The notes below the pieces were generated by a model. That model ran no database searches. It saw only the letters and a list, made by a program, of their open reading frames with translations, and had not been told where the DNA came from. A stretch of 56,354 nt of DNA from NCBI GenBank assembly GCA_045598925.1, contig JAZRVC010000009.1, positions 1-56,354 of the forward strand, given 5' to 3'. Position numbers and translations under genes: made by a program. Shown here piece after piece: positions 1-50,102 of this stretch; within the stretch, counting starts at the first letter, position 1, and each line of letters starts with the position of its first letter. This DNA is from Alphaproteobacteria bacterium. Its GTDB lineage: Bacteria > Pseudomonadota > Alphaproteobacteria > CAAHEQ01 > UBA3637.

Positions 1-415
<415 letters not shown>

Positions 416-10339: not shown

Positions 10340-11530
10340 ATGAGTAAAGAAAAATTTGAAAGAACAAAACCGCACTGCAATATCGGTACGATTGGTCACG
10401 TGGACCATGGTAAGACCACATTGACTGCGGCTATTACAAAAGTATTATCAGAAAATGGTGGCGCTTCATTCGTTGATTACGCCAACATTGATAAGGCTCC
10501 TGAAGAACGCGCTCGTGGTATTACAATTAATACTTCACACGTTGAATATGAAACAGCCAAACGTCACTATGCGCACGTTGACTGTCCGGGACACGCCGAC
10601 TATGTGAAAAACATGATTACCGGTGCGGCCCAGATGGATGGTGCTATCTTGGTGGTGTCTGCTGCTGATGGTCCAATGCCTCAAACACGTGAACACATTT
10701 TGTTGGCTCGCCAAGTGGGCGTTCCTGCCATTGTTGTGTTTATGAACAAGATGGATATGGTGGACGATCCTGAATTGTTGGAATTGGTTGAAATGGAAAT
10801 CCGCGATTTGTTGACTTCCTATCAATTCCCCGGGGACGAAATTCCTATCATCAAAGGTTCTGCGAAAGTGGCCTTGGATGGCGGCGATGCTAAATTAGGT
10901 CGTGATGCCATTATGGCTTTGATGGATGCGGTTGATTCTTATATTCCTCAACCTGCCCGTCCGACAGATAAGACTTTCTTGATGCCGATTGAAGACGTGT
11001 TCTCAATTTCCGGTCGTGGTACAGTGGTGACCGGTCGTGTGGAACAAGGTATTGTCAAAGTCGGTGATGAAATTGAAATCGTGGGCTTACGTCCAACACA
11101 AAAAACAACTGTGACCGGTATTGAAATGTTCCGTAAATTATTGGATCAAGGTGAAGCCGGTGATAACATTGGTGTGTTGTTGCGTGGTACAAAACGTGAA
11201 GAAGTGGAACGTGGTCAAGTGTTGGCTGTTCCTGGTTCTATCACACCACACACAGAATTTGAATGCCAATGCTATGTGTTGACAAAAGAAGAAGGTGGAC
11301 GTCATACTCCATTCTTTGGAAACTACCGTCCTCAATTCTATTTCCGTACAACAGACGTGACTGGTACTGTTGAATTACCAGCCGGTACAGAAATGGTTAT
11401 GCCGGGCGATAACATCACAATGAAAGTGAAGTTGATCGTTCCAGTCGCCATGAATGAAGGCTTACGCTTCGCTATTCGTGAAGGTGGTCATACAGTGGGC
11501 GCTGGTACAGTTTCCAAGATTATTAAATAA
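10340..11530 (+). CDS. tuf: Elongation factor Tu
   Basis: Motifs [19 protein letters not shown] and NKMD; 396 aa. Confidence 0.99.
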
Positions 11531-11551
11531 TAATCTCATCTGTATAAAGAA

Positions 11552-11583
11552 GACTCCCTGCCTGAAAGGTGGGGAGTTTTTTT
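11552..11583 (+). terminator. Intrinsic terminator of tuf
   Basis: ACTCCCTGCCT-GAA-AGGTGGGGAGT stem followed by a T-run. Confidence 0.85.
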
Positions 11584-11587
11584 ATGC

Positions 11588-11616
11588 TTGCAATTTTCCG
11601 ATTGAACCGCTAAAAT
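11588..11616 (+). promoter_or_regulatory. sigma70 promoter for the structured leader and pilin-like gene
   Basis: TTGCAA (11588-11593), N17, TAAAAT (11611-11616). The predicted TSS near G11623 coincides with the first base of the first hairpin. Confidence 0.75.
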
Positions 11617-11622
11617 AAATTT

Positions 11623-11811
11623 GTCTTTTCCAAGGTGGAAAAGGCGTTGGGCGTAAGAAACCCTTAAACATAGAGTTGGCAACAACTCTTTAATAACGTT
11701 GGCATTCGGCCGAAAGGACGGATGTCGGCTGAATAAGGCTTTTGGCCCCAATAGGCTGAGCCATTATGTTTATGGTTTCTTAACATCCGCCCACTTTATG
11801 GTGGGTTTTTT
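11623..11811 (+). ncRNA. Unassigned structured RNA leader (riboswitch/attenuator candidate) ending in an intrinsic terminator
   Basis: Nested helices 11648-53/11788-93, 11654-62/11774-82 and 11665-72/11765-72 close a junction with four hairpins (two with GNRA loops). Terminator GCCCAC...GTGGGT followed by Ts at 11789-11811. Confidence 0.65.
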
Positions 11812-11840
11812 ATTAACATTATTTTGAAAGGAAACTATAA

Positions 11841-12494
11841 ATGTTGAATAAAAAGAAAAAATTAGAATCAGGTCGTTCAATGGTTGAAATGCTGGGCGTT
11901 TTGGCGATTATCGGGGTGCTGTCTGTGGGCGGTATCGCGGGCTATACCATGGCCATGAATAAATATCGGGCCAATGAAATTTTAAATGGGGCATCCATGA
12001 TGTATATGTTGGGGATGGCTTCCAATCAGGGAAATGGCACGGCTGAATTGACATATTCTGGCACAATAGGCAGTGTGCCAACAGGCGCCAGTGAAATTAC
12101 CTATACCAACAAAACGGTAGTGGTAAAAATTCAAGACGCCAGTGTGTGCGACCAAGTGAAAAATCAACTGGGGGATAAAGTATCCGCAGGCGATTGTGAA
12201 ACCGCCACCAGTGGTGTGTATTCATTGACAATTACTTTGAGCGAAGCAGACACAACAGGGGGAGATATTGATTGTAGTCAATGTCCCAGTACTTGTCCTA
12301 CAGGATGTGGCAAAGTGATGGCAGCAGATGATTTTTATGCGGCCAATAAAACGGAAGCCTCAAATGAGTGTAAAAAACAGATCCATCCTGGTAATAACAA
12401 ACCCTTCTTAGGAGCCTTCACGGCAGAAGAAATACCAGAAACACCACCACCATCCTATCAAGCAGAATATACATGGTTTTGTTGGAATGAATAA
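11841..12494 (+). CDS. Type IV pilin/pseudopilin-like protein with class III signal peptide and Cys-rich C-terminal domain
   Basis: Basic leader MLNKKKKLESG followed by RSMVEMLGVLAIIGVLSVGGIAGY (G at -1, E at +5, hydrophobic helix). CSQCPSTCPTGC lies in the C-terminal part. Confidence 0.8.
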   Translation: MLNKKKKLESGRSMVEMLGVLAIIGVLSVGGIAGYTMAMNKYRANEILNGASMMYMLGMASNQGNGTAELTYSGTIGSVPTGASEITYTNKTVVVKIQDASVCDQVKNQLGDKVSAGDCETATSGVYSLTITLSEADTTGGDIDCSQCPSTCPTGCGKVMAADDFYAANKTEASNECKKQIHPGNNKPFLGAFTAEEIPETPPPSYQAEYTWFCWNE

Positions 12495-49704: not shown

Positions 49705-49731
49705 AAAAATCCGCCCGAAAAGGCGGAAAAA
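49703..49731. terminator. Terminator between the convergent rlmH and rnpB
   Basis: TCCGCC-CGAAAA-GGCGGA flanked by A-runs, giving a T-run on the minus strand. Confidence 0.75.
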
Positions 49732-50102
49732 GTCAGATAATCTATAAGCCGGGTTCTGTCGTGGGACAATCATTCGTCTGGTTCATTGATTACTCAATAA
49801 CTCAAGCAACCTACCTTTTGATAGCCGAATCAGGACTTTCGTTTGAACCTGTAATGTATCCGATCACAGGGCTATCTGTGTTTGGTCTTGCTTTCAATAG
49901 GGTTTGTCGTGCCATAGCACCTCTCGGCCTATGCGGTGGGCTCTTACCCCGCCGTTTCACCCTTACCCATATAAAATGGGCGGTTTGTTTTCTGCGACAC
50001 TATCCATCGGGTCACCCCGCCCGGACGTTATCCGGTATTGTGTCCTTTAAAAGCCCGGACTTTCCTCCAACTTTTCAGTCAGCGATTGTCCGATTATCTG
50101 AC
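49732..50102 (-). ncRNA. rnpB: RNase P RNA (type A)
   Basis: Minus strand GAGGAAAGTCCGGGC near the 5' end and ACAGAACCCGGCTTA near the 3' end. P1 helix GTCAGATAATC/GATTATCTGAC. TTGACT-N17-TATAAT promoter at 50138-50110. Confidence 0.96.

Follow-up and report, generated by a model that had tools for sequence, protein, structure and literature searches.

Between the tuf gene and a pilin-like gene in a 56,354-nucleotide (nt) stretch of contig JAZRVC010000009.1 (hereafter the window, whose plus-strand coordinates are used throughout), we found a structured RNA leader that is new, abundant, and lineage-wide, and that has two conserved folds arranged as a terminator and an antiterminator. Both folds, which we call A and B, are conserved across homologs, and both overlap the intrinsic terminator that precedes the pilin-like gene. 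Our preferred explanation, to which we attach a probability of roughly 60%, is that the leader is a cis-acting transcription attenuator in which the two folds exclude each other and a helix of fold B, alt23, serves as the antiterminator. The anatomy of the leader gives good support to an action in cis and on transcription: an intrinsic terminator stands between promoter and open reading frame (ORF), and a conserved alternative pairing, alt23, holds the 5′ arm of this terminator, the two features by which an expression platform is recognized.

Covariation Supports a Plus-Strand RNA Adopting Fold A

The promoter, 5′ hairpin, multibranched fold, and terminator that a preliminary description had placed at 11588–11811 can all be read in the sequence (z about −7.3; table 1), and the leader has a promoter of its own and a terminator directly before the gene, as was stated there. 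On the plus strand, segment 11618–11815 folds with −81.2 kcal/mol (z = −7.34), a value reached by none of 200 shuffled sequences, while the minus strand of the same region folds less well (−62.2 kcal/mol, z = −4.75). This stronger fold and the many G-U pairs indicate a plus-strand RNA, in agreement with the preliminary description.

Fold A consists of helices P2–P6, and its covariation was assessed on 102 copies aligned with a covariance model (alignment A4). Together with the terminator, it is paired in 94.2% of cells, with 36 of 47 pairs doubly changed, and it reaches a covariation score of 0.523 against 0.211 for shuffled alignments (0/500 as high) and at most 0.079 with slid partners; the copies are kin and such shuffle controls overstate significance, yet distinct compensated sequences are numerous despite this kinship. 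The sequence of P3 is hypervariable and always compensated (9/9 pairs doubly changed, 96.5% of cells paired), and its pairs head the ranking in an all-against-all mutual-information scan. All four Watson–Crick types occur at every P3 position and at three P2 positions, and the P2 pairs 8:138, 9:137, and 10:136, with two to four Watson–Crick types each, are paired in 98 of 98 copies. P5 covaries at 55:82 (CG, UG, or UA), 64:73, and 65:72; its 3′ arm hardly varies and can pair with two other conserved partners. The stem of the terminator alternates between CCCAC/GUGGG, CCCGC/GCGGG, and CCUAC/GUAGG, with pair 150:160 being AU in 47 copies, GC in 37, and GU in 12, and pair 149:161 being CG, UA, or GC. 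The four hairpins enclosed by the fold in the preliminary description fared unequally: those at 11673–88, 11698–11729, and 11737–47 are present, whereas the closing pair of the fourth, GGC-TGA-GCC, is an A × C mismatch in 67 of 98 copies.

Upstream of this core, the sequence of the 5′-terminal hairpin P0 is variable, and a hairpin lies within the preceding 32 nt in 80 of 88 copies, compared with 18 of 88 for an upstream control segment that was scored on energy alone, which is a looser test. By eye, promoter-like motifs (TTGCAA/TTGACA…TAnAAT/TATACT) are similarly placed in the copies of the window's own genome, and among 88 copies taken from other genomes, 42 match a strict promoter pattern.

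A Second Conserved Fold Would Capture the Terminator's 5′ Arm

The mutual-information scan, combined with targeted counts, revealed four helices that are incompatible with fold A: H0, X, Y, and alt23. These fit one coherent fold, fold B, and each of them rules out a helix of fold A. H0 pairs nGGG with CCCn′; its closing pair 1:17 (AU 61, UA 17, GC 4, CG 2) is formed in 85 of 96 copies and is U × U in the copy of the window. The GGG concerned, in the 5′ segment of the leader, has three possible partners, namely CCC at 11661–63 (H0), UCC at 11786–88 (P1′), and CCC at 11790–92 (the outer helix discussed below). Helix X has the family form AGCCG with CGGUU (117:130 is GC in 82 copies and AU in 14; 116:131 is CG in 94 and UA in 2). 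Helix Y, in which the base of the P5 3′ arm pairs with GCYGA, has a pair 82:111 that is formed in all 98 copies (GC in 81, AU in 11, and GU in 6); eleven different complementary sequence pairs of the helix were seen, and in the window it encloses GAAUAA (11731–36), P6a (11737–47), and AAUA (11750–53). Alt23 joins the rest of the P5 3′ arm to ACAUCCGCC and can be as long as 10 bp elsewhere in the family. It forms the closing stem of the three-way junction with Y and X and sequesters the 5′ arm of the terminator.

Alt23 is nearly invariant in the main type, and divergent copies were fetched, in which its two strands are jointly changed (GGGUGGAUG/CAUCCACCC, GGUUGGAUG/CAUCCAGCC, UGGCUGGAAG/CUUCCAGUCG): at least 8 contiguous bp form in all 22 divergent copies, with both strands changed. 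In the main alignment, the helices of fold B are 95.7% paired, with 10 of 22 pairs doubly changed, and score 0.126 against 0.072 for shuffled alignments (0/500) and at most 0.028 with slid partners. In a structure-blind MAFFT alignment of 43 sequences that included the divergent copies, the score is 0.318 against 0.169 (0/500); there, Y is 100% paired (5/5 pairs doubly changed) and alt23 95.8% (4/9), with 13:103 being CG in 25 sequences, UA in 15, and UG in 3, and 12:104 being GC, CG, or UG. The complementarity of CGGATGT (11719–25) to ACATCCG (11783–89), reported in the preliminary description as a secondary pairing, therefore covaries across the family, and mutually exclusive pairings that reach the 5′ arm of the terminator are conserved, as had been proposed.

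The switch favored at that time was another one, an outer helix TGGGCG/CGCCCA competing with the terminator. This helix can form in the copy of the window, and it underlies an alternative model, that of an ON riboswitch: fold A would offer its four-way junction as an aptamer, and the bound ligand would stabilize the outer helix and so withhold the 5′ arm of the terminator. The minimum-energy fold of transcripts cut before the 3′ arm of the terminator contains the outer helix. Full pairing of this helix is seen in 96 of 99 main-type copies, and 5:146 switches from C-G to U-A in UGGGUU-type copies. Across homologs, however, the evidence for it is weaker: of 100 rows, 73 lack the outermost pair and 18 lack 6:145, while the remaining pairs hardly vary and carry no informative covariation in the main type, and its four core pairs all form in 9 of 22 divergent copies, against 18 of 22 for the P1′ register GGN:UCC, which leaves the terminator free. 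Moreover, the pairing of fold B accounts for most of the conserved bases left "unpaired" by fold A. Given the weakness of the outer helix across the family and the covariation of alt23, we take the latter as the conserved antiterminator and consider the aptamer model unlikely.

Table 1. Features of the leader and its flanks in the window
Feature	Position	Strand	Basis or remark
tuf ORF	10340–11530	+	ORF list
tuf intrinsic terminator, stem ACUCCC.../...GGGGAGU and T-run	11553–11584	+	Sequence; end of the upstream transcription unit
Sigma-70-like promoter: TTGCAA (11588–93), 17-base spacer, TAAAAT (11611–16)	11588–11616	+	Consensus scan, 9/12 matches
P0, perfect 10-bp 5′-terminal hairpin GUCUUUUCCA / UGGAAAAGGC	11623–11645	+	Sequence and folding
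5′ segment UGGGCG and P2 5′ strand	11648–11664	+	GGG has three possible partners
P2: UAAGAAACC (11654–62) with GGUUUCUUA (11774–82), that is TAAGAAACC/GGTTTCTTA	11654–11782	+	
P3: UAAACAUA (11665–72) with UAUGUUUA (11765–72), that is TAAACATA/TATGTTTA	11665–11772	+	
P4 hairpin GAGUUG-GCAA-CAACUC	11673–11688	+	Folding; 4/4 pairs doubly changed
P5, long G-U-rich hairpin: 5′ arm 11698–11711, loop GAAA, 3′ arm GGACGGAUGUCGGC 11716–29	11698–11729	+	
P6a hairpin	11737–11747	+	Sequence
Helix Y: UCGGC (11725–29) with GCUGA (11755–59)	11725–11759	+	Competes with base of P5
Helix X: AGCCA (11759–63) with UGGUU (11773–77)	11759–11777	+	Encloses P3 3′ strand; incompatible with P2 and P3
alt23: CGGAUGU (11719–25) with ACAUCCG (11783–89), plus GG 11716–17 with CC 11791–92	11716–11792	+	
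Leader intrinsic terminator: GCCCACU-UUAU-GGUGGGU (11789–11806), then U6	11789–11811	+	Folding, scan
Downstream gene, 217 aa	11841–12494	+	ORF list

The Leader Is a Multicopy Cassette Found in Most Genomes of One Bacterial Family

Homologs, which the preliminary description had suggested looking for along with covariation and an Rfam match, are numerous. By BLAST and the covariance model R1, we identified 11 near-full copies in the window's own genome (77–84% identity), and at least 21 copies with E-values of at most 2e−4 when divergent ones are included, for a genome assembly of 0.906 Mb that is 84% complete. Copies resemble each other from about the promoter to the initial codons of the gene that follows, and are unrelated further upstream. 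Many own-genome copies (C39:177, C10:905, C35:1065, C19:1668, C11:357, C27:1980, C14:2007, and C33:14050) have a contig end no more than about 2 kb away. The repeated cassette and the conserved gene start probably break the assembly, which would make the copy number a lower bound.

Model R1 matches 60 of the 80 genomes of the bacterial family, spread over 12 of 16 genera and with up to 22 matches per genome; the order of the host has no genomes beyond these 80. Where other families of the class were sampled, 4 of 119 genomes had matches. Scanning one genome per species with a sequence pattern gave at least 116 stretches; among the matches listed, most belong to bins labeled Alphaproteobacteria or Azospirillum from human and animal guts, a few to bins with other labels, and one is probably a chance match. 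We take such genomes to be the RF32/CAG-239 lineage, a name that none of our searches gave. Outside supplements and the 2011 sRNA-Xcc1 paper, literature searches found no description of an RNA element in this lineage.

A repeat of this kind may also be a DNA-level element, such as an invertible promoter, a recombination site, or a miniature transposon having P2/P3 as its inverted repeat. The 17-bp inverted repeat, the many copies, and their frequent position near contig ends fit such an element, as does a set of downstream genes reminiscent of phase-variable repertoires. Yet no copy has an inverted interior, against 12 own-genome and 147 other copies in forward orientation, a count on which an inverton was rejected; P5 and the terminator need G-U pairs, which exist only in the plus-strand RNA, and the arms of P3 vary between copies while staying complementary. 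We consider a DNA-level function highly improbable.

The 3′ Half of the Leader Resembles sRNA-Xcc1

When the whole window was scanned with Rfam at the gathering threshold, no family was found at this site, and the covariance models of known riboswitches, T-box, 6S, and tmRNA gave no match in either threshold or E-value mode. In E-value mode, the only recurrent match was the small RNA (sRNA) sRNA-Xcc1 (RF02221), with 24.1 bits for the copy of the window, where the gathering score is 53, and 32.5–39.7 bits for own-genome matches. The leader is thus "unrecognized," as the preliminary description put it, as far as the Rfam threshold goes, but its 3′ half is a subthreshold look-alike of sRNA-Xcc1. 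Where the model matched other copies (7 of 15 sources), its alignment uses exactly fold B, the closing stem being alt23, its first arm Y/P6a, and its second arm X, and the three-way junction had been derived from covariation before this alignment was seen. Conversely, of 14 true Xcc1 loci, 13 gave a match to the fold-B model R2 where the element is annotated, but at just 14.8–28.2 bits and with E-values from 4.5e−5 to 0.12 (at most 0.011 in 10 of 14).

Both RNAs have a three-way junction whose first arm carries AAUA/GAAU internal loops around a small hairpin; the second arm of sRNA-Xcc1, GCCGU…ACGGU, resembles helix X and is followed by a UUUC linker; and both are multicopy and lie directly upstream of ORFs. 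They differ in that the leader scores 24–40 bits against a threshold of 53 and has the junction as an alternative fold, not as its predicted ground state. In addition, the leader is about twice as long, with a 5′ half (the H0/P2/P3 strands and the P5 5′ arm) that competes with the junction, its closing stem overlaps a separate intrinsic terminator, and its host lineage (gut Alphaproteobacteria) and downstream genes are different. We regard the 3′ half of the leader as a distant relative or a close structural analog of sRNA-Xcc1, judged on sequence and structure, and not as a member of the family by the Rfam criterion.

Among 151 genomes sampled from the phylum, 24 carry sRNA-Xcc1 over the threshold, frequently more than once, and in 13 of 14 true loci (L209–L222) a mechanically called ORF lies within 20–53 nt downstream. 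At L209 and L219 at least, inspection by eye shows a short sequence 5′ of Xcc1 that is complementary to the Shine–Dalgarno region 3′ of it, which hints at a translational expression platform at these two loci. Northern blots and end mapping are reported to show sRNA-Xcc1 as an RNA of 88 nt (PMC2996969). In integron cassettes it is located upstream of symE (bioRxiv 10.1101/2025.06.18.660453), and Xylella carries seven copies, of which five are in tandem (PMC12189769); in titles, it is described as a trans-acting sRNA.

By analogy, each leader might be an independent, Xcc1-like gene for a trans-acting sRNA, with incidental read-through into the downstream gene. Each copy does have a promoter and a terminator, and the discrete size and multiple copies reported for sRNA-Xcc1 would be in keeping with this view. 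Nevertheless, the spacing to the start codon is fixed and leaves no room for a second promoter, the hypervariability of P3 and P0 implies that no seed is conserved outside paired segments, the downstream genes are functionally coherent, and genes in tandem arrays each have their own copy. An sRNA acting in trans is therefore, in our opinion, a rather poor candidate.

Downstream Genes Form a Surface Repertoire

Of the 11 near-full copies in the own genome, 10 are followed by an ORF that starts 11–30 nt past the element; for the remaining copy, only 176 nt away from the end of its contig, no ORF was found. In the window, 30 nt separate the end of the terminator from the ATG at 11841, and AAGGAA at 11828–33 is likely the ribosome-binding site. 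The ORFs behind the 10 copies encode 217–433 amino acids (aa) and share the N-terminus GRSMVEMLGVLAIIGVLSVGGIAGY, which in the 217-aa protein of the window resembles a prepilin-type signal. It is a resemblance only, with 13.8 bits for N_methyl (cut-off 21.2) and 10.8 for TIGR02532 (cut-off 16.3), and the residue after the glycine of the motif is R, where F or M is usual. The genome encodes a prepilin peptidase (peptidase A24) and three T2SSE ATPases.

The motif G[RKQ]SMVEMLGVL is found in 33 ORFs of this genome (e.g., on contigs C7, C45, and C2), 19 of which have the leader pattern within 420 nt upstream. These ORFs form a very large paralogous family for a 0.9-Mb genome, with near-identical N-termini and C-terminal parts that vary in length and sequence. 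In many of the genes, moreover, the start codon is separated from the prepilin-like motif by an in-frame palindromic repeat, about 60 nt long, that is predicted to form a hairpin and reads ...PVILSGREGSMDSSANAFRMT...; it was seen at G000:C39:35699–35813 and in 64 further blastn matches, occurs elsewhere in the genome too, and resembles the in-frame palindromic elements of other reduced genomes.

Contrary to the preliminary description, the leader is not tied to pilin genes: among 147 copies in other genomes, 32 precede a pilin-like ORF, 108 another ORF, and 7 no ORF (counting ORFs of at least 40 aa that start 20–129 nt past the ACAUCCGC motif). By simple heuristics, 153 distinct downstream proteins comprise 48 pilin-like, 41 lipoprotein-like, and 31 with a signal or transmembrane N-terminus, leaving 33 others. 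Twenty downstream proteins were searched against Pfam in two batches of 10. In the first batch, nine proteins had a match, to Stealth, GT2 (two proteins), GT8, Acyl_transf_3, APH, EcoRI methylase, N6_N4 methylase, and YpsA; in the second, one OMP beta-barrel (Opacity-like) was over threshold. Of the remaining ten proteins of the two batches, three matched below the cut-off only, and the protein of the window and six others had no Pfam match. The downstream set, which across genera includes lipoproteins, outer-membrane proteins, glycosyltransferases, and DNA methylases, is a surface and surface-modification repertoire, resembling the phase-variable gene sets of other host-adapted bacteria.

Tandem genes each carry their own leader. 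At locus L195 (G019:C22:12800–14750), for instance, three tandem leaders about 440 nt apart each precede an ORF for a lipoprotein-like protein of 59–68 aa. Six of 23 divergent-type leaders (L188, L191, L196, L198, L200, and L203) precede similar small proteins, and that of L188, the only one of the six to be searched, matches the YpsA SLOG family.

A Model of Transcription Attenuation and Its Competitors

We propose that the regulatory unit is a self-contained cassette made of promoter, 5′ hairpin, structured leader (about 165 nt), intrinsic terminator, ribosome-binding site, and gene, with transcription probably starting near 11623. Fold A, the predicted ground state, would leave ACAUCCGCCCAC free enough for the terminator to form, resulting in termination (OFF). 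In fold B, H0 would form together with the three-way junction, the P5 3′ arm pairing with GCUGA (Y) and with ACAUCCGCC (alt23) around P6a and X, and the 5′ arm of the terminator would thereby be removed, resulting in read-through (ON). The effector may be a small molecule or a protein; the junction would be the part most likely recognized, possibly at the two-fold symmetric GAAUAA/NAAUAR internal loop. In this way, the cassette might gate many surface or surface-modifying genes individually, and in the present genome mostly an expanded family of pilin-like genes. The assignment of fold B to the ON state, the existence of an effector, and its binding site are what we infer from this arrangement.

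Several points weigh against this model. Fold A is favored over fold B (with alt23 and Y enforced) by 18.9 ± 4.4 kcal/mol over 69 sequences, and removal of the 5′ strands still leaves it ahead by 6.5 kcal/mol. Simple thermodynamic bistability is not supported, fold B being about 19 kcal/mol less stable, and this gap means that fold B needs either a kinetic route during transcription or stabilization, as by a strong effector. The alternative helices could then be folding intermediates and not a regulated state. To this are added the kinship of the copies, mentioned above, and the subthreshold level of the sRNA-Xcc1 matches (29.2–39.7 bits, in 7 of 15 other sources). Sequences from four runs (X1, X2, X3, and X7, contigs) cover tuf and, in the pilin-like gene, its conserved start, and none fall in 11524–11819 except for a little X7 cover in the last bin, which is uninformative either way. 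On the other hand, the contrast between a G-U-rich, mismatched P5 and the all-Watson–Crick Y and alt23 would fit a displacement of the P5 5′ arm.

The same energies are open to another interpretation, in which the leader is a constitutive 5′ untranslated region (UTR) module for stability, processing, or strong expression that has spread as a promoter cassette, and the alternative helices are cotranscriptional intermediates. Such a module would be consistent with the strong energetic preference for fold A, with a 5′-terminal hairpin, which is typical of stabilizing leaders, and with the occurrence of the cassette before unrelated genes, which resembles promoter propagation. It is hard to reconcile with a covarying terminator directly before the ribosome-binding site, and against it stands the complementarity of alt23 to the terminator arm, still perfect after several double changes. 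We thus find a constitutive module improbable, and retain attenuation by competing folds.

Known attenuators offer partial parallels. Riboswitches for cyclic di-GMP (c-di-GMP) are multicopy and precede surface genes. In Clostridioides difficile, the c-di-GMP-II riboswitch Cdi-2-4 lies upstream of pilA1, where ligand binding leads to read-through (PMC6366702). Like the leader of the window, it combines a leader and an intrinsic terminator before a pilin or pilin-like gene; unlike it, our leader matched neither the c-di-GMP-I nor the c-di-GMP-II model in Rfam scans, and GGDEF was not found in three leader-positive genomes that are 95–98% complete, which weakens c-di-GMP as a universal ligand. 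The window's own genome encodes GGDEF (two matches), DAC (one), and RelA/SpoT (one), and several nucleotide messengers therefore remain candidates. The matches to the DAC (cyclic di-AMP synthase) domain and to GGDEF include G000:C1:6457–6810 and G000:C18:1651–2103, and one of the two GGDEF sequences has an in-frame TAG.

Protein-dependent attenuators, such as BglG/SacY with its ribonucleic antiterminator (RAT), PyrR, and ANTAR systems, share with the leader a three-tier logic of hairpin, antiterminator, and terminator, and the RAT has a quasi-symmetric internal loop that is bound by a dimer. The leader RNA is much larger and unrelated in sequence, and neither CAT_RBD (BglG-type) nor ANTAR domains were found in the own genome, at 84% completeness. 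Antitermination of the RfaH/LoaP type was rejected because each of six genomes has exactly one NusG match. A leader peptide seems unlikely, as the leader's sole ORF begins with a nonconserved TTG and lacks a ribosome-binding site.

More tentatively, and as a conjecture that we would not rate as probable, the Xcc1-like junction could be a sensor domain for a metabolite, a second messenger, or a dedicated protein, which small gut Alphaproteobacteria would have wired to a terminator before each of their variable surface genes (those for pilin-like proteins, lipoproteins, porins, glycan-modifying enzymes, and DNA methylases); the leader would then define a new riboswitch-like class controlling a surfaceome regulon, and sRNA-Xcc1 would be a cis-regulatory domain used with differing expression platforms. 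If true, an RNA filed for 15 years as a trans-acting sRNA would be recast, and its widespread fold, which in both families stands just upstream of ORFs, would receive its first functional context. Since the present genome devotes 21 or more copies of a roughly 190-nt cassette to single surface genes, these uncultured bacteria with genomes of about 1 Mb may well possess a central and as yet unstudied control over the face that they show to the gut of their host. The rich covariation supporting two competing folds would also make the leader a good natural model of a bistable RNA.

Other RNA Genes of the Window

The Rfam scan also located in the window the 5′ end of a 16S rRNA gene (1–415, minus strand), cut by the window edge, a class A RNase P RNA (49729–50101, minus strand), and three tRNAs between 9579 and 10210.

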